Shown here one piece after another: positions 24,209 to 49,440 of a DNA stretch of 64,000 bases; position 1 is the first letter of the stretch; every line of letters begins with the position of its first letter. The notes under the pieces are model-generated. The model was not told where the DNA came from. It saw only the letters and a list, made by a program, of their open reading frames with translations, and did no database searches. Both the position numbers and the translations under genes were made by a program. Source of the DNA: Octopus vulgaris (lineage: Eukaryota); contig OX597814.1 in assembly GCA_951406725.2 (NCBI GenBank), forward strand, positions 72,354,001 to 72,418,000, written 5' to 3'.

Positions 24209-25266
24209 CTATGTTTGACTTTTGCTTTACATTTGCACAAGCTGGCTCCAAGTCTCACCCAGAGACCTCAAGAGACAAGTTGGAAGTTCATGTTGGTGTT
24301 ATGCCTCGGGTGCCATATATTTGGTTTTGTACTAGTGAATGTCTAAAAAAAACATACGAAAATTATGTTTGTTTTAAAACTTGAGATTACATAGAAAGTA
24401 TTTTGCGTAGGATATGAGCAGTTCCCATGAGCACTATCTTTTGAATTTCTGCCATTTTTGGGTTTCCTGGTATCTGAGTTAGGTAGCAATCATTCCCGGA
24501 GCACCTATGACAACAGGTATTGTTTTAGTCTTCAGGTTCCACATTTTGCCGATTTCTATTTCAAGATCTTTATATTTGCTCAGTTTCTGCTAGGTCTTGA
24601 CAGATACGTTATCGATTGGGACAGTTATATCAATGAGGAGGCATGTTTTTTGTTTGAAGTCTTTTAATATGATGTGTGGCCTATTCGCATCTATCTTTCT
24701 GTCAGTTTGAATGGTGAAGTTCCAGAGGAGTGAGATGTGGTCATTTTCAAGCACTGGAGGTGGTTTGTGTTCCCACCAGTTTTTATCTTTGGGCAAGTCC
24801 AGGCTTTTGCAAATTACCCAGTGAATATATTGTGCAGCTCTATCATGCCTGTTGAGATACTCTGTAGGCGCAAGAAGACTGCACTTGGAGACATGATCAA
24901 TGGTTTCATTTTGCTGTTGACATACATGACATGTTGGGCTACTGCTGTTCTTTAATATGTTGGCCTGGTAGTTCCTTGTAGGTAGGCATTGATCTTGAGC
25001 TGCTATGATAAACCCTTCTGTTTCAGATTTTAAGCCAGAATCCATTAGCCATTGATGGGTCAGGGCTTTGTCAACATCTGCATTATTTGCTCTCTTTGGG
25101 TATTTGCCATTGAGAGGTTTTTCTTGCCATTTATCATTCAGAATATCTAAGGCAGCAGTTTTAGCAAGGGTTTTCATGCACTTAGTTTTTTCTGTGCTTG
25201 TTTCTTGTATGTCTAATTCCGAAATTTGTTGTATTCGGAATTCACTTAGATACTCCTTTGCCTGTA
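24208..25266 (-). mobile_element. R4/Dong-clade non-LTR retrotransposon 3' part (CCHC + RLE endonuclease)
   Basis: SETEGFIIAAQDQ, CHVC...ETIDHV.KC, YLNRHD, LLWNF.IQTD..I.ANRP.I..., IDITVP; flanked on both sides by (TAA)n. Confidence 0.88.
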
Positions 25267-25805
25267 TTTTTTTATTATTATTATTAACATCTGGGGATGA
25301 AAAAGAAAGCTGCCAGCAGCAGAATTTAGGCTGAGAAATGTTACAAGTGTAGAACGCACAGTTTATCATTTCCTCTATACAACTTCCTTCATTAGTTTTA
25401 TATCTTCAGTCTGGATGATAGCCATAGTACAGTTTATATGGAAGTTAGTCAAAGTGTAAGGCATTAACAACTGTGGCCACCAAAAAGGAAACACTAACTT
25501 CTTGCCTAGATTATAGCTGCTCCAAAGAAATACATTATTGGAGATCATGTACAGTGTATTTTATATTATACACATTGTATAAGATGCTTAAATACCATTA
25601 GATCTTCTGTAAAGAGAAATTCTCACAGCCATAGAGAAGAACTGAATGGATTTCTGTATCTTGGTATTCCTTTATAACAATAGCATAGGTGTTAATTGCA
25701 TAAAGGCAGTACGAGCTAGAATCATGTTCTTCTTTACTATGCTAAGTTTCACCAGTTGTAGAAAGAGTGTCTCTGGTATGCAAATTCATCTCTTATAAAT
25801 GTCGA

Positions 25806-27029: not shown

Positions 27030-28130
27030 TATGTAGATTTTATCTGAATGGGTAGTCCATCCAAGCTTCAACAGCATAGCTGCAATACCTGATGGAGCTA
27101 TAGCAAGTACTATTCAGACATCAGGCCACCTTCATTGTTGTCAATTTTACTTTTGATTGACTCAAAAACAATCTGTTTGTTGTTGAACATATTTCTGTGG
27201 TCATTGTAATAAACTTCAGCTGAAGGATCTAGTTCATCTGGGTTAACAGGCACATTTTGTTGCTGGTGGCCTGCAGCTGACAAACATTAATTATATGTTG
27301 AATGCTCATATTGAATCAACTGGTTGTCTAGTATACACAGGGTGTCATTGGCAGCTTCTCTTGCATTTTCAGTGTTGTAGAAAATCATCAATAAGGTTGT
27401 TGCAATACATGTATAAATTTAGAGGCTAAAGCAGGGAGCAGGAATGAAGAATTGTAAGAAATAAAATTGCAATAAAAGATGTATCTCCCTTTTGGATCTT
27501 CTGCATTTTTATCAAAATAAGCCATTTGTTTCATTGATTGAGCATTTTCTACGTTTAGATAAAGATTATGTGATGATTGAATCTAAAGACATTTCTACTG
27601 ATTAAGCAATTCAAGTTTCCAATTTGATTCAGATGATCCCTGTAATTTTCATATTAAATGATCTTATACTGATTTGCATCACTGATCTCAAGAGAAACTC
27701 ATTCTTGTTCTCTTTCCAGTGAGTTTGAATATAGATATTTCACAGCTTTAGCAGATGCACTTCAGTCAACATATGAGCTTCATTGTACCAATTAACAACT
27801 TTTATGTCCCCGTTTCAAACTCATGGCTTCCTTCAATAGGACATCACCAACAATATAGTAGATAACCGTCACCACTACATAATGTTTGTGAATGAAACTC
27901 AGAGGAATAATTCTTGTTGCAACATCCATTTAATAAGCAAGATGAAGTTGCATTCTGTTTTCATAAAGACTAACTGCACTTGCATTATTTGGATTGGGTA
28001 GCTCAGTAGAGGCACTTTTGTTGATTTTTTGCTATAAGTTGTGTTATTTTCTACTATAAAAAGAAAATGGGAGTGAGGAAAACCTCTCTTCTGGAATTCA
28101 ATTGTACTCACACTGATTTGTAGAGGTTAC
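27030..28130 (-). mobile_element. Highly decayed autonomous Helitron Rep-helicase remnant
   Basis: IEFQKRGFPHSH (Rep HUH motif 2) at ~28070-28105 and VLAIAPSGIAAMLL..G.TTHS (PIF1 motif Ia) at ~27045-27112, in the same orientation. Confidence 0.75.
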
Positions 28131-28472
28131 TGTTACTTTAGTTTGAAAACTTGTATAGTTACATCAAAGTGATCTGCACTCAATTCTCTAATAATTTCTT
28201 GTCACTTTGGATGGTGTGAGTAAAGTACAATTCTTTAGGACACTCTCTGTGTTTGACATGGTTTGAAGGGCAAAGTAGCAATTGTTGTAACTATGATTCA
28301 GTTTTGTTTTGATGAGACTGTCTAGAGAAATAGTACTTAAAAGTTTGTAGTATTTGGAATGACCAATGTAGTAATAATTGAGTCTTCAGCATATTTTTGA
28401 CTAATAATACAAAGATTAAGTAAACAACATTAAATGTTAAGACTGAAAAATTGTAAACTTTTTTTTTTGCAG

Positions 28473-28691
28473 AATACATTTTTGCAATCAATGCATCGGC
28501 ATATTCGTAAAGGAGGCACAACTCCAGTCTCTCCATGTGGAAGTCAACCTCAACAGCAGCAGCCAGTTTCCAATACTTCTCCTACTGGTCTATCAATTGG
28601 ACGCAGCACAAGTCAAACAGGTTTTTCATCAAATCCAGAACAAGCTTTTTACAAATTAGTAAGTGAATTTGTAACAAAAGTATTACGATAA
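28473..28691 (+). CDS. NUP188: NUP188 terminal coding exon (NTFLQSMHRHIRKGG...EQAFYKLVSEFVTKVLR*)
   Basis: (T)n-gcAG acceptor; TAA at 28689-28691. C-terminus resembles human STLLSSLSRYFRRG...QEPLIQLVQAFVRHMQR. Confidence 0.9.
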   Translation, partial: NTFLQSMHRHIRKGGTTPVSPCGSQPQQQQPVSNTSPTGLSIGRSTSQTGFSSNPEQAFYKLVSEFVTKVLR

Positions 28692-28764
28692 CAGAAAAAA
28701 AATTTTGTAAGAACTTTTATAACAAAAAAAAAACAAAAAAACAAATTGATGTATTTTGAAATTC

Positions 28765-28770
28765 AATAAA
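28765..28770 (+). promoter_or_regulatory. Candidate NUP188 polyadenylation signal AATAAA
   Basis: AATAAA 74 nt after the stop codon, followed by T-rich sequence. Confidence 0.45.
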
Positions 28771-30378
28771 TTAACCATTTTAATAACTTTTTAAAGTTTC
28801 ATTTTTTAAAATTAATCATCATAATCCTGCACTTAACCAAAGTACAGAGTAACTAGACATAACCTAAGGGAATTTTGTATTTATGAATTTATAACAGCCA
28901 TATTAATTCACCTGTCAGTTGCTCTAAAAAATCTAAGTTAAGTAAGAAATTGTTTAAAAGTTACTTATCTGAGAAATTCAATTCAATCTTAATTTAAATG
29001 GTCCCTACTGTTGATAGCAATGACACTGAAGACTGAAAAGGCCAATCCTCACACTAAACAAAATAAAAATGACATGGAAGAGTTAATGGAGAGTATAGTA
29101 ATTATTGCTGTATTTTACATTCCTAATGTTTTTCTTCTTACTTCAGTAGTAATAAGACTGACACCAGATGGAACGGCTCTGGACTTTAATTTCCCATGTC
29201 ATTTTGAGAGCTGACTTTAGCTGATCTTTGTAACAGCAGAAAAGATATCATTGTGGTCTTTTGACAGTGGTTAATTCACTGAAGCAAATCTAAGGAAGAA
29301 ATCTTACTCTTTTTATTGTCACCACATAGCCTGATCATTGGTGTTTCATGATAGTGGTTTCTATGCTTTGACTGTTGGCTTTTTCTAAGACAACATTGTT
29401 CGCTATGTAGTCTGCTATCTGATGTTTAAAATGTCACAAAGCTACTGTTAGTGGAAATGTTCCAGACTTTTGATGTTCTGACGATAATATGTCCATGTTT
29501 CACAATTGAATGATAATGTTGAGATAAACTGTTTTATGAGGATGAGGATAAGATCTTTGTTCTTAAAGACTCATTTTAACAGTTTTCCACACACTGAATA
29601 GACTGATCCAAATCTGTGTTCACATCCTTTTCAGAAATACATTTACCGGAAAAAGACTTCTAAGATATTTCAGTGATAGTGATGTTGAAATCAGGGAGAT
29701 TGGTCTTCTTGACATTTACTGATGTCAAAGCATATATGCATGGGTGAAGTTGTTGACTGATTTCTGGAGTTCTTGATGTATGGGACAAAGAGCAAAGTCA
29801 ACAAGATCTAAATCTAGCTATGTTAAATAGTCTACCATCAAAATAATACCTATATTAACATTTGAATTGTCTACTGGAAATTTGGGATTCAGGAAGACCC
29901 TTCTCTACAATGAAGAGCAGTGTTATTCCAGGATAATTCCCATAAGATTTTCAGTCTCTTTTCTTGAAGATGTTTATAATGGTTGCAGTTTTAAATTCAT
30001 TTGAAACTAAGCAAGCTTCCCATATTTTCAGGATCAGAATGAAAAACCTGGTTTTGAGAGGTAATCCATGTTTCAGTCATTCAGAAAGGTTGTCATTTGG
30101 ATTTGAGTGGGTTGGGCTTTCATACAATTCATGGCAGTTTCAAATACTTGAAATGATGGTTGTATTTCATCCATAATTGTTCAGGATGATGTGGAACATA
30201 TTTCAAGAAATAAATATTAGCAGCAGAGGCAGTATTAATACCAAGAGCTAATATTTACCTCCACTTAAACATGGACGGTCTGTTAGAACAAACTGTACTG
30301 TGGTAATTACCTGTAAATTGCACTCTAGTTTATATTACTAGTGGGGGGATAAATCCCTGCCACCTCCGGCATTGAGAG

Positions 30379-30423
30379 CACCAGATCATATGATCTCAAC
30401 CTTCCTTGGTCTTATCAATGATG
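30379..30423 (-). ncRNA. Type I hammerhead ribozyme-like motif, copy 1 (U3-A8 core; A14G lesion)
   Basis: CAUCA UUGAUAA GACC aaggaa GGUU GAGA UC auau GA UC UGGUG. Confidence 0.6.
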
Positions 30424-30688
30424 GATGCTTGACCGCTAGAGATGGCAGCAACTCATCTCCCCACCAGCAATACAGTGAGAGCTTGTTAAACATATATATT
30501 AGCAATAGAGGCAGTATTAATACTGAGAAGTAATATTTATCCCTACTTAAATGTGAATGTTCTGTTAGAACAAACTATACTGCAGTAAATACCATGAGAG
30601 AAACACTCATATTGGTGTTTGGTGCAAAAAGCACTCTTGTTTATATTGCTAGTGGGACAATAAATCCCCACCATCTCCAGCACTGAGA

Positions 30689-30735
30689 CCATCCGATCCC
30701 ATGATTTCAACATTCCTTAGTTTTATCAATGATGG
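30689..30735 (-). ncRNA. Type I hammerhead ribozyme-like motif, copy 2 (U3-A8 core, intact GAAA)
   Basis: CCAUCA UUGAUAA AACU aaggaa UGUU GAAA UC augg GA UC GGAUGG. Confidence 0.65.
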
Positions 30736-31018
30736 ACACTCAACTGCTAGAGATAGAAACAACTCATATTCCCACAAGTAAGCATTTTGCACCAACAGCC
30801 AATATGCAAGTTTCTTTCATTGCATTGTCTGTGTTTTTACACAGACATCTGCAAAGTTTTGAAGCTCTATTGCATTCTGTTGCTACTAGTTCTGTATTTC
30901 TCCAGAGTTTAACATTGGAGTTTGAATCTTATGGAATTGATTTAAAATGATAATCATAAATCAATAATAGAACAAGGAAAGTGAAAAGACAGAAGACAAT
31001 GTTTAGACAACATTGGTC

Positions 31019-31024
31019 TTTATT
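31019..31024 (-). promoter_or_regulatory. Candidate GPR107 polyadenylation signal (AATAAA on -), implying a ~2 kb 3'UTR
   Basis: tttatt on +; the region 31000-33090 lacks recognisable TEs and the downstream minus-strand sequence is GT/T-rich. Other AATAAA sites exist. Confidence 0.35.
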
Positions 31025-33093
31025 TAATCTGTACAAAATGTCAATGTTAAATTTGATAAGATCGACACATGCCATTTCCAAAAGGAAAACTGTTATAAAT
31101 AGTTCCAAACAAGAAAATAGTTGATACTACCAGTCATATTGCTGTTAACAGAAGACTAGTTGCTGCTGGAATCATTAGGAATGAAAGATTTTATTTGAAA
31201 CAAATGGTTTATAAACACAGCTTATTCAATACCTTGACAATCACAGTTGGTGCTCAATAGAGAGTTCTCAGTAGAATACAATGTTTAAGAACCACCACCT
31301 TTCACCTCCTATATCAATATGACTTTGACATCTACCATCACATTTCCTTTTTTCAATTCAAGATAGCATTGTCATATGTTACAAGAGATTTTTAAATGAA
31401 CTTTATTCTCCCACCATTATACAAATTGGTATTTAAAGACTGACATGAAAAATAAACTACACCTGAGAAATTAACATAAATTAAACTATGATTGATGCAT
31501 TAACCAAACATAATTCAATTTTCCCCCACTATGAATAGTGCTGGTTAGTAACTGATTGCAAAATATGTTTTCATCTTTTTTTTGTGTGTGGGGATATGAG
31601 CAAAGACAAGGAAGAATGTGTTTCATTCATATTAACAATACATATCAGTTGTTTGTGCAGGAAGCAAGCATCTTAAAAGCTTCATTCATACAAAAATTGG
31701 TCCCTAGACAGAAAATGACATTATGCTGAAAGTTTAATAAAGTAAAATCGTTGCCCTTCATATAACATCAAAAAGAATAAAAGTTGAGAGGAAAACTGAG
31801 TGTAAAAAATGAGAAACTCACAACCATTTCTTCCTTTCAAAGCAATAAGTTTTTTTTTTTATCTTTTATTTTTTTGTTTTTTTAGTTATGGATATATTGT
31901 TATTTACTAAAAGCCTCCTTCCGGAATAGAATTTTAAAAGGACACTTTTCAGATAGTTTGCTTGACTTTTACCCAGATATTATTTATGTTTGATGTTTCT
32001 AAGAAAAAATATTAATACTCTTCAGGATTGTTCAGGGCAAAATTTTCAGTTGCAATCTTGAATAAACCAATGTTTTCATTTCATTGTTCATCAGCTATGA
32101 ACTCTTTTGTGGCTTGAATCTTTCTTAAATATTGGTAACTATGAAAATATTTTTGTTGGGGTGTTTTTTAAATTTTTTTTTAGTACAATAGATATAAAAG
32201 AAACTGAAACAAAAAGAAGGGTTTCAAGAACTGCAATGAAGTTATAATGGAGTCTGTGTTATAATAACTTTTTTTTTTTTTAGCTGAGCATTCATAGAAC
32301 ACTAACAAGTCACCCACTGTCTCACTGATATAATGCTTAATCTTTATAATGATAGCTATTTTTGTTAGGATGATTTGGAGGCAACATTTCAAGCAAAAAT
32401 AAAATGATTAATAACAAAGCCTGTATTTCTTTGAATAAAATCTCAAATACATCAAGTTTCCAAATGATGCCAAAATGATATTGTGACATGATCTCCCAAT
32501 GCATTGAGAATACAATCAGAATGCCTTATAAAAGATCAAAGAGTTGAATTACTTTGGCTGAAACAAAAGAAAGAAAGGATTCACTTCTTTTAAGGTATGA
32601 TCAATAGGATTTTAAATCACAATTGACTCCACCTTGAAATCTCAAATCTACTAGCCTAATTTTAAGATAAATGTTACCTATAACTTTTGTTTGTGAGTGC
32701 TGTTGTAACCTATATAAAAATCTTAATTCTAACAGGTGAAAGTTGACCTAGTTTTGCAGAAAATAGCATATGAAGTAAAGAACAATTTGATCATATAGTG
32801 ATAAATAACAGCTGCATACATTTAAAGCCAAATAAATTAAAACCTGCTGAAACAATCTTGATATGACAATCCCAACCAGCATTATCACTATGTTCTTCAC
32901 CTGACCATACTGCTCCATGTGAGGGGTGGTAGTCATAGTCTATATCTGACAAAACACATTGGTCCTGGAAATAATAATTAAATATCATTGTTAAAAGATG
33001 TGTAGAATTTACAATTGATTTAGGTCCAGTTCTTTCCATGGTTTATTTACAGTTTCCCCAGTTGTCCAACTCTTACTGAAGTCTTGATTGACT

Positions 33094-42229: not shown

Positions 42230-43555
42230 CTTGTTTCATTAAATAACTGTAACTTTTTTACTTATCAACATTTAATGTGATATTTGGAACATAATTAAAG
42301 AAAGGGTTCTTAATCAATTCTATTGCATAACTTTTGTCTCAAAGTGACTTTAATTACAGGTAAATCCAGGTAAATTGAGCAAAAGGTAAAAAATTAAAAT
42401 TTTGTTTAAACATCACTATAGAAAATGAATCATCAGCTAATATTCAAATGGGTATGCAACAAAATTTTGATAAAGAAGAATTGTGCACATCACTAGATCA
42501 TCAGTTGAATTTCATGCACAACAGGTGTACCATAAAGGTGGAATAAACTGAAATATTGGAATCCACCGTAAGTTTGAATGAACTAAAGAAATCAGTCAAA
42601 AAATAATATACGGTCCTGGTTATGGTATAGAAGTGATAAATTCCAAACCACATCGTTCCCTAGGCCATGCTGACTAACATTTTCCCTGTATAAAAACTAA
42701 ATCCACGCAGTACCTAGTAATTTGCTTCACAAATTTTCCGAAATTTGATCCCCGATTTTGTGTTTGTTTACAATCTGCGTAAGTTTGTTTCCGCATTGAT
42801 CGCTTCAAACAATAACTTCCAGACCACATCGTACCCTAAGCCATGCTGACTAACATTAGTTTCCCTGTATAAAAACTAAATCCACAACAGTACCCAGTAT
42901 TTGCTTCACAAATTTTCCAAACTTTGAACCCCGATTTTGTGTTTGTTTACAATCTGCGTAAGTTTGTTTCCGAAGTGATCGCTTCAAACTAGCATACTGA
43001 AAAAAATAAAAGTCTAATGATTTCACTTCCTAAGAAAGGCTATAGATAAACTTTATCTCCTCAGAAAAATTGCTAATAAAAACATTTAAAAAGTTTTTTT
43101 ACTTCATTCCGATGTAAAATCGTCTTCGCTGTCGCCGCTTTGTTTCTTCGGAAGGCGCTGCTTTCATTTTCGGATAAAAAAATATTCATTATTTTGTACA
43201 CCACGTGCTTTAGTACCTATTTCATTCTTTTTCTCGATATCTCCCTATTTTCCGTTGAAAAAGCTTTAAATTCGGAATCAATGCTTGATAACATGAAACT
43301 CCTATCCATTTTCAAAGTTGAAGAAAAATCGATGCCGAAAAACATGTGGAAAAAAATCTCCCAAAATTCACTGAGTTGAGATATCACTTCAAGCAATGTC
43401 GGATACTATAACTTAACTATTTACAATGTGAAATCACATGTTTTAACGAATGTACCAATGAGATTTGGGTTCAAATTTACATTTAAATAACAATAGGTTC
43501 TCATAGCCGGGTACGGCCGGCTTGGTATTATGAAACAAAAAATTTTACGGCCGGG
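42230..43555 (-). mobile_element. Possible piggyBac-like non-autonomous/decayed element
   Basis: Right end CCGGG|TTAA; CpG-rich subterminal region; decayed acidic reading frame near 43100-43320. No matching left end was found. Confidence 0.4.
42641..42989. repeat. Tandem duplication of a ~175-bp unit
   Basis: TTCCA.ACCACATCGT.CCCTA.GCCATGCTGACTAACATT...GATCGCTTCAAAC at 42641 and 42817, highly similar. Confidence 0.9.
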
Positions 43556-47984: not shown

Positions 47985-49440
47985 AAGAATTCACAAAAAA
48001 AAAAGACAAAGACAGGTGTATTAGTTTAACGCTCGGGAAGTGAAAAAGTCTTTAATGTTTCGAGCCTATGCTCTTCCACAGAATGGAACTCAGAAAGAAA
48101 CGAGGAGAGAAAATAAAGAATGTGTAGCAGCTAGCGATCTATCATGGCAAATGCCAGACAGAGGGGTCACACAGGAGAGCTTGGAAGAAGGGGAGATAAT
48201 AAAGTAGTGGTGATCCCAAAATGAAGGTGGGCATGCGTGTGTATAAGAGAGCATGTATGTGTGTGTGGAAGAGAACTGGTGACCTTGACGTGTAGGTGTG
48301 TGGATGATGGTGTGAGGCTGGGAAGTGGTCAGTGCTTGTGTGTGCATGGTGGTGTGATGTGGTGTTGAGATGTGGGGGAAGCAAGGGTGGGGTGTGGGTT
48401 AGGCTGAGGGTGGGGTATGTGGGAGTGGTTGGGATGGACAGGGAAGGTTGGGTTGGATTGTGTAGGGGTGGAGTTACAAGGGAGGGAGGCAAGAGTGGAG
48501 AGAAGGAGAGTAGGACTGAAGAGAAGAAGTAGGAGTCGGAGCAAGAGAGGAGAGGTGGGTGGGAGGAAGTAGGTGTGACAGGAAGAGAGGAGAGGGGAGG
48601 AGAATTGAGCCCATGTGGAGCAAAGAGAGAAGATTAATCTTAGTTCATGGCAAAGACATGAGTCTGGATGGCCCCTGTGCAAGGACAATTCAAACACAGA
48701 CAGATGTGGCAAAGATTGACCGGCAGAGCAAAAATGGTGCAAGACTGGGGTGTCATTGCCGAGTCGGATATTTCAGAGGTGTTCTGCGAACTGGTTAGTA
48801 AAGCGGTGTCCCGTTTGCCCGATGTATAGAGAAGGGCAGAGAGAGCAGAAAATGCAGTAGATGACATTGATAGAAGTGCAGGTGAAGGAGTCGGTGATAT
48901 GATAGGGTTGATGATGGGTGCCGGTGAGGAGGATGGTGATGGAGAGGTACGGGCAAGTGCGGCAGAGTGGGTGGAAGCAGAGGAACGAGTTGGGTTAGGG
49001 AAGAAGCTGTGGACCAAGAGGTCTCGTAGGTTGTGGGCTTGTTTGAAGGAGGGGAAGGGTTGGTTAGGGAAGATGTGCGAAGTGAAGGGGTAGGACTGGA
49101 GTTGCCAGAAGGCTTGGAGAATGGTGTGGTGGTGAAATGTGTGGGTGGTGGGGTGGTAGGTGAGGGGAGACGGGAGACTGCCGGGTGGGTGCGGGAGAGA
49201 AAGCATGGAACGTACTCTGGCAACGGCAGTGTGGATAGTGGTGAGGGGATGATGTGGCAAGCCATTAGTTGAGACTGAGTCTCAAAGTCATGGTCGTCAC
49301 TGCAGAGCCTGCGTAGACGGAGGAATTAGGAATAGGGGATAGAAAGCTTGGTGTGTTTAGTGTGGGAGGAGGAGAAGCTGAGGTATGAGTGTGAGTCTGT
49401 GTGTTTGTAGTGGATGGAGGTGGTGAGAGTGGAGTGATGA
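47985..49440 (-). mobile_element. Penelope-like element 3' part (RT C-terminus, GIY-YIG endonuclease, pLTR)
   Basis: LTYHPT..., FKQAHNLRDLLVHS, PCRTCP, ITDSFTCTSINVIYCIFCSLCPSLYIGQTG...FAEHL (GIY-YIG); hammerhead-like motif in the pLTR at ~48050-48085. Confidence 0.88.

Follow-up and report, generated by a model that had tools for sequence, protein, structure and literature searches.

A decayed partial dimer of a dispersed 353-nt retrozyme-like hammerhead family with a polymorphic 3-8 pair in the genome of Octopus vulgaris

The window, a 64,000-nucleotide stretch of the Octopus vulgaris genome (contig OX597814.1, positions 72,354,001 to 72,418,000), carries on its minus strand two direct repeats, each with a type I hammerhead motif that has U3 and A8 in its core. 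We hold with good confidence that these repeats are a decayed partial dimer of a dispersed family with a 353-nt unit, which likely spread as a non-LTR retrozyme with a polymorphic pair at positions 3 and 8. The preliminary description of this locus, made from the letters alone, treated the U3-A8 core as non-canonical; such a core is not new in nature, having already been published (PMC4209133, PMC3088659, in the parts of both available). What appears to be added here, judging from genomic sequence, is tandem retrozyme-type families that carry it. The interest of the window locus lies in the series of 3-8 alleles of its family and in the two younger U3-A8 families to which it led.

On the minus strand, copy 2 (30781-30492) precedes copy 1 (30479-30210), and each copy reads the 5' strand of stem I, UUGAUAA, stem II with a 6-nt loop, GA(A/G)A, a palindrome, UC and the 3' strand of stem I. 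The features of the locus are as follows.

30774..30825, plus strand: inverted 5' head of 52 nt, unit positions 204-255, head-to-head with the tandem (family-profile nhmmer E 1.4e-11; inverted repeat)
30492..30781, minus strand: upstream unit (copy 2), 5'-truncated, unit positions 63-352 (nhmmer E 2.4e-90; alignment)
30210..30479, minus strand: downstream unit (copy 1), unit positions 54-352 (nhmmer E 1.9e-77; gaps)
30689..30735, minus strand: type I hammerhead of copy 2 (sequence, alignment, constrained fold)
30735-30730/30694-30689, minus strand: stem I of the copy 2 hammerhead
30729-30723, minus strand: core of the copy 2 hammerhead, U3 at 30729 and A8 at 30724
30722-30709, minus strand: stem II of the copy 2 hammerhead, followed by G12-A14 at 30708-30706
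30705-30696, minus strand: palindrome of the copy 2 hammerhead, followed by C17 at 30695
30378..30424, minus strand: type I hammerhead of copy 1 (sequence, alignment, constrained fold)
30418-30412, minus strand: core of the copy 1 hammerhead, U3 at 30418 and A8 at 30413
30411-30398, minus strand: stem II of the copy 1 hammerhead, followed by A14G at 30395
30394-30385, minus strand: palindrome of the copy 1 hammerhead, followed by C17 at 30384
30328..30474, minus strand: long imperfect hairpin extending stem I around the hammerhead, unit positions ~55-205 (self-complementary nhmmer match)

Sequence and alignment bear out two minus-strand type I hammerheads in direct repeats, as first described, with predicted cleavage sites at 30695 and 30384, 311 nt apart. 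Three stems surround the core, stem I is open and the cleavage site is of the NUH type. The core departs from the hammerhead consensus by U3 and A8 in both copies and by A14G in copy 1. The other marks of decay that had been reported are also seen, namely an A.G mismatch that adjoins the cleavage site at the base of stem I and a U.U mismatch in stem II, both in copy 2, where A10.1-U11.1 also replaces G-C. The proposed 311-nt monomer does not hold: the family unit is 353 nt long and ~42 nt are missing at the junction between the two window units (353 minus ~42 = 311). Stem III is a dimer-type palindrome, as had been proposed, but it is 10 nt in size, from A15.1 to U16.1, and not 2 bp. The repeats pair at 30210-30311/30492-30593 (81% identity, offset 282) and at 30312-30470/30623-30781 (79% identity, offset 311), and copy 1 has an additional 29-nt deletion 3' of its hammerhead. 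The long stem I hairpin is found in copy 2 also, and 101-nt pieces of both copies fold with a z of -3.6. No open reading frame of at least 90 aa lies over the repeat, and the repeat is absent from the list of Tandem Repeats Finder.

In the family majority, stem I is 6 bp long, stem II has 4 bp with G10.1-C11.1 and is capped by a 6-nt loop, and stem III is a perfect 10-nt palindrome. Canonical metazoan type I hammerheads have the same helix sizes (6 bp in I, 4 bp in II) and a palindromic stem III (PMC4209133, available part). In the consensus of the aligned family copies, a check that the preliminary description proposed, the majority keeps the stem pairings and U3. Stems I-III are 93-96% paired in 32 copies, and 24 of the 77 gap-free copies still appear intact. 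The covariation proposed as a further check is absent within the family alignment, where 1 of 18 pairs has a two-sided change and the score is 0.069 against 0.073 for shuffled alignments, 3 of the 18 pairs being without letters owing to offset rows. Neutral decay of nearly identical templates would give this outcome, and it is the majority sequence, not covariation, that supports the stems.

After 20 CpG sites of the majority sequence had been restored by script, the circular monomer is predicted to be strongly structured (fold z -9.5 against 60 shuffles), and the double hammerhead is the predicted minimum free energy (MFE) structure of the dimer (ddG 0.0, compared with 11.8 kcal/mol for two monomer hammerheads). 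The double-hammerhead fold of the window pair lies 31 kcal/mol above its own MFE. Each site of a double hammerhead combines the core of one copy with the scissile strand of the other (PMC6155905; PMC4209133, available part). Because of this exchange, site 30695 would depend on the core with A14G, which leaves 30384 as the sole site open to cleavage, so that no monomer would be released and the window pair is likely an inactive, dead relic. A preference of C3 for a non-hammerhead monomer fold (ddG 4.2 versus 1.8) was considered as a reason for U3 and dropped, since the difference is gone in the dimer.

A search of the genome (G000, 2.8 Gb) with the window repeat gives 2846 first-look candidates, and 40 of these yield 66 scored matches with ~70-89% identity. 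A degenerate hammerhead motif has 51 matches, compared with 0 for the reversed control. The window hammerheads are therefore not a chance occurrence. The family alignment comprises 88 units from 57 distinct loci, and the unit profile is 353 nt long. Because copies are about as similar within a locus (identity 0.767) as between loci (0.758, sd 0.038), the family is the product of an old, star-like burst; its CpGs are ~90% decayed. The family is dispersed and multi-copy, its non-coding head-to-tail unit falls within ~170-400 nt, and a type I hammerhead with a palindromic stem III is found per unit family-wide, although decayed in the window pair. Thus, the idea of a non-LTR retrozyme-like family is supported, and the family would work like the metazoan non-LTR retrozymes in the features of these that can be tested (PMC7229834, available part).

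Partial tandems of two or more pieces are found at 31 of 68 loci; most arrays have 1-3 units, and the longest observed have 3-4 pieces. The 3' ends fall at unit positions 301-353 in 57 of the 68 loci, a clustering to which the choice of query and phase contributes. Inverted heads, scored by eye, occur at 14 of the 68 loci, and the window locus has one too. Partial tandems with inverted heads are the described insertion pattern of Penelope-like elements (PMC8557442, available part), and the 353-nt family displays it with 5'-truncated partial tandems. The cleavage site, at unit position 149, is not where the insertions end. Targeting to (TA)n was dropped as a candidate because (TA)n is present at only 2 of the 68 3' flanks. 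Linked Penelope open reading frames, which the preliminary description proposed to look for in other copies, did not appear: tblastn gives no Penelope protein match at the 68 family loci with ~1.5 kb flanks. Nor does the 353-nt unit resemble any of 30 Penelope loci, most of them of one superfamily (best E 1.2), and a Penelope parent of the family was thus rejected among these 30.

The longest matches between flanks are due to abundant SINE-like repeats of ~420 nt (L004, L020, L037, L057 and others). In the family alignment, CpG-keeping copies have a non-CpG divergence of mostly 0.12-0.23 and CpG-decayed copies of mostly 0.05-0.15, which suggests two mutational compartments and is partly an effect of copy picking. 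The segment L050:1290-1810 is present in sequencing runs under six organism labels, with at least half of its words in 5 runs under three labels; no RNA run carries it among the matches listed. Contigs of three putative RNA runs and one DNA run on L050 (80% likeness) are mostly diverged paralogues, and go-back joints in such assembled contigs do not tell tandem DNA from circles.

Position 3 is U in 39 and C in 11 of the 50 copies that were not picked by motif, and its C fraction is the highest of 94 T columns (median 3%). Among 91 motif matches, tallied by eye, 61 have U3 (45 with A8, 15 with G8, 1 with U8), 26 have C3 (13 each with A8 and G8) and 4 are other. Because U occupies position 3 in 39/50 and 61/91, U3 is inherited, and U3-A8 is not private decay. 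The association between positions 3 and 8 has p = 0.043 in the motif matches and is not significant in the BLAST-derived copies (p = 0.075, n = 44 of 48). C4 (U4C) is found in 5 of the 26 C3 copies, that is 5/91 motif matches. Such C3-C4 cores of the window family were noted at L061, L065, L070, L123-L125 and L131; a C3-C4 core is also present in an unrelated Penelope-type motif on the minus strand of L090 near 548.

The preliminary description placed U3 and A8 outside any CpG. This is correct for the two window copies, in which N7 is U, but not for the family. There N7 is mostly C, which makes a CpG of positions 7-8 whenever G8 is present, and this dinucleotide shows the same decay as the other 20 CpG sites, reading CG in 3, TG in 16, CA in 25 and TA in 3 of the BLAST-derived copies (n = 52). 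Some of the A8 is therefore CpG decay. Among the U3 matches with an intact stem II CpG (n = 33, by eye), A8 is found in 24 and G8 in 9, and C7A8 in 20 compared with U7G8 in 1 (p 1e-5 under symmetric decay; 0.024 at the most skewed site observed). This excess of C7A8 over U7G8 indicates that A8 is partly inherited, decay alone being insufficient for the ratio. C7G8 is still present in 8 of these 33, and at L027, L038 and L130 neighbouring copies carry different decay products of a single CpG; therefore U3·G8 templates existed too. With these and the C3-G8 templates, the uniform U3-A8 family of the preliminary description is not upheld, and U3-A8, U3·G8 and C3-G8 templates likely all spread. The state U7A8 occurs in 11/91 matches, whereas the stem II CpG shows the equivalent doubly changed state in 2/91 (p = 0.018). 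The window copies agree at just 7 of 17 other CpG sites and have one derived non-CpG base in common, so that the rare U7A8 in both is likely inherited.

Non-CpG positions give no clear marker between U3-A8 and U3·G8 copies. With so many columns tested, none of the subfamily markers is convincing; the strongest is one position in 3 of 4 C3-C4 copies. A reading of U3-A8 as the mark of a younger subfamily, based on an intact stem II CpG in 18/36 U3 versus 2/15 C3 copies (C3-C4 copies excluded), was rejected, because intact CpGs track low local decay and not age.

Two younger families carry a fixed U3-U7-A8 core. The first has a non-coding 362-nt unit, ~92-98% identity, tandems of 2-3 units and inverted heads (L116, L118, L119, L110 and L115; G000 C3:89758940, C10:96123298, C2:172255198). 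It has 190 exact-context matches, with UUGAUAA in 98 of the 100 listed, and no sequence kinship to the window's family (best E 0.78). With its full-size type I hammerhead, it is a second retrozyme candidate and the best test substrate. For two of four natural tandems of this family, the predicted double-hammerhead fold is at most 2 kcal/mol from the MFE; for the other two it is 10-13 kcal/mol away. The second is a Penelope-like family, with a minimal hammerhead of core UUGAUAA at its 3' end, followed by (TA)n. A GIY-YIG search gives 6136 candidates, many in 781-aa open frames, and L080 has both reverse transcriptase (RT) and GIY-YIG domains; L080, L084, L085, L092 and L099 carry the hammerhead 3' of the open reading frame. 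This hammerhead has 185 exact-context matches; in the 100 listed, U3 is present in 100, A8 in 96 and the full heptamer in 94. The two younger families have the core heptamer and the stem III palindrome in common. Because N7 is U and U3-U7-A8 lies outside any CpG in both, CpG decay is not the source of their A8. Genome-wide, one stem III palindrome gives 2864 U3-A8 matches (control 219) and 1575 C3-G8 matches (control 46), both counts being unfiltered for stems. Further hammerhead-like families with canonical C3-G8 cores (L132-L141) were noted among the 1575.

In the proposed mechanism, tandem RNA of the 353-nt family would fold as the predicted double hammerhead, and its cleavage would free unit-length RNA, which may circularise. 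A Penelope-like reverse transcriptase and endonuclease would likely copy the unit RNA back into the genome. The spreading templates were likely polymorphic at the tertiary 3-8 pair, mostly U3-A8 with some U3·G8 and C3-G8 (some of the latter with C4), and later decay of C7pG8 would have added more A8. The window copies likely received U3-U7-A8 from their template.

It is rather improbable that the same retrozyme family had U3·G8 and C3-G8 templates only, with all A8, including that of the window, arising by CpG decay after insertion and the compensated pair being coincidental. The decay spectrum that positions 7-8 share with the other 20 CpG sites fits such an origin, as do the tandem neighbours with U7G8 versus C7A8 at L027 and L038 and the C7G8 and C7A8 copies at L130 that have private variants in common. 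However, it accounts neither for the 20:1 ratio of C7A8 to U7G8 in low-decay U3 copies nor for the excess of U7A8 over the stem II double state, and it has both window copies reach U7A8 despite their poor agreement at other CpG sites. The two younger families are likewise left unexplained.

We give slightly less weight still to a pseudo-LTR origin, in which an extinct autonomous Penelope-like element left the units behind as solo or truncated pseudo-LTRs and no independent retrozyme existed. The Penelope-type partial tandems and inverted heads are consistent with it, Penelope elements in this genome have 3' hammerheads with U3-A8, and a preprint, in its available part, derives retrozymes from Penelope pLTRs (10.64898/2026.07.22.740005). 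However, the joints are head-to-tail within one 353-nt unit, tblastn gives no attached RT and GIY-YIG protein at the 68 loci, the unit does not resemble the 30 Penelope loci, and its hammerhead is full-size whereas the Penelope hammerheads of the genome are minimal. It is very improbable that the family is a SINE-like or satellite-like repeat that spread with an already non-functional hammerhead, so that its core alleles drifted. Amplification of cores expected to be weak (U3·G8, C3-C4), ends away from the cleavage site and absent covariation would suit such a repeat. However, the majority retains G10.1-C11.1, the perfect palindrome, every stem and the remaining core positions, about a third of the gap-free copies (24/77) appear intact, and natural weak cores with activity, U4C and others, are known (PMC3088659, available part). 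A non-LTR retrozyme with a polymorphic 3-8 pair thus remains the preferred reading.

A more far-reaching interpretation is possible but doubtful, namely that the exchange of a catalytic tertiary pair has been caught in progress, more than once, in one genome. The order in time that we infer would run from C3-G8 through U3·G8 to U3-A8, frozen in the copies of the 353-nt family, with an amplified wobble intermediate, methylation of C7pG8 driving the second step and the finished U3-U7-A8 in two unrelated younger families, a core now in the majority among hammerheads with their stem III palindrome. If so, the mutation regime of the host would reshape the active site of its mobile ribozymes.

The closest known system is the metazoan non-LTR retrozymes (Cervera & de la Pena 2020, PMC7229834), such as the 350-390 bp repeats of mussel. 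In the available part of that paper, these have a non-coding unit of 170-400 nt, one type I hammerhead per unit, and short tandems with solo copies, as the 353-nt family does, and its predicted circle would likewise be strongly self-paired. Unlike them, the 353-nt family has a U3-A8/U3·G8 majority core, is old and CpG-depleted, is mostly found as 1-3 units and is known here from genomic DNA, its circles being predicted. The main text of PMC7229834 has no mention of octopus or cephalopods; its supplement may differ. The Cercyon Penelope elements of Schistosoma mansoni carry ~1,300 minimal hammerheads with U3-A8 (PMC4209133, available part); these have the same core covariation, an animal host and a tie to Penelope. 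However, they are minimal and mostly single motifs, whereas here full-size type I hammerheads occur in two tandem retrozyme-type families, one of them with intermediates, in addition to a Penelope 3' end. In the available part of PMC3088659, Perreault et al. (2011) describe several natural U3-A8 variants as covariation of the C3-G8 pair, and cite in vitro activity of exchanged 3-8 pairs and in vivo sufficiency of U4C. Unlike these several examples, thousands of mobile-element copies appear here in one genome. A halophile variant with U3...C7G8 and an insertion is quoted in PMC7151607 (available part). No description of these families, nor of full-size tandem retrozyme hammerheads with U3-A8, came up in the literature; a cephalopod family could be listed in the supplements of PMC7229834, PMC4209133 and the 2026 preprint.

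As anticipated, standard searches miss the U3-A8 core. An Rfam scan of window positions 28000-33000 (E<=10) gives 5 matches and no hammerhead, no Rfam hammerhead matches the two younger families, and the gathering score is not reached in the window or at any locus scanned. Two of seven loci, L056 and L071 (E 0.0075 and 0.024), match the whole model of Hammerhead_HH9 (RF02275), sharing the type I topology of this model and its clan, at 25-26.5 bits compared with a gathering score of 52. Hammerhead censuses based on CUGANGA or Rfam thresholds would therefore miss what appears to be the majority class here (2864 versus 1575 for one palindrome), including two retrozyme-type families and a Penelope family with intact open reading frames. 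In the window's family, a single scaffold carries natural alleles of the tertiary C3-G8 pair in series (C-G, U·G, U-A and C·A, plus U4C), which makes it testable how much cleavage the spread of a retrozyme requires. For a demonstration of circles from a U3-A8 hammerhead, the young 362-nt family offers ready material.

Elsewhere in the window, a 179-bp tandem repeat in two copies (91% matches) lies at 42636-42989. A stop-free frame of 271 aa is present on the minus strand at 24590-25405, and it presumably resembles the C-terminal part of a non-LTR retrotransposon protein. Penelope-like coding remnants are found on the minus strand at 48764-48979 and 49275-49433, 18 kb from the repeats (tblastn with the L080 protein, E 2e-6 and 0.06).
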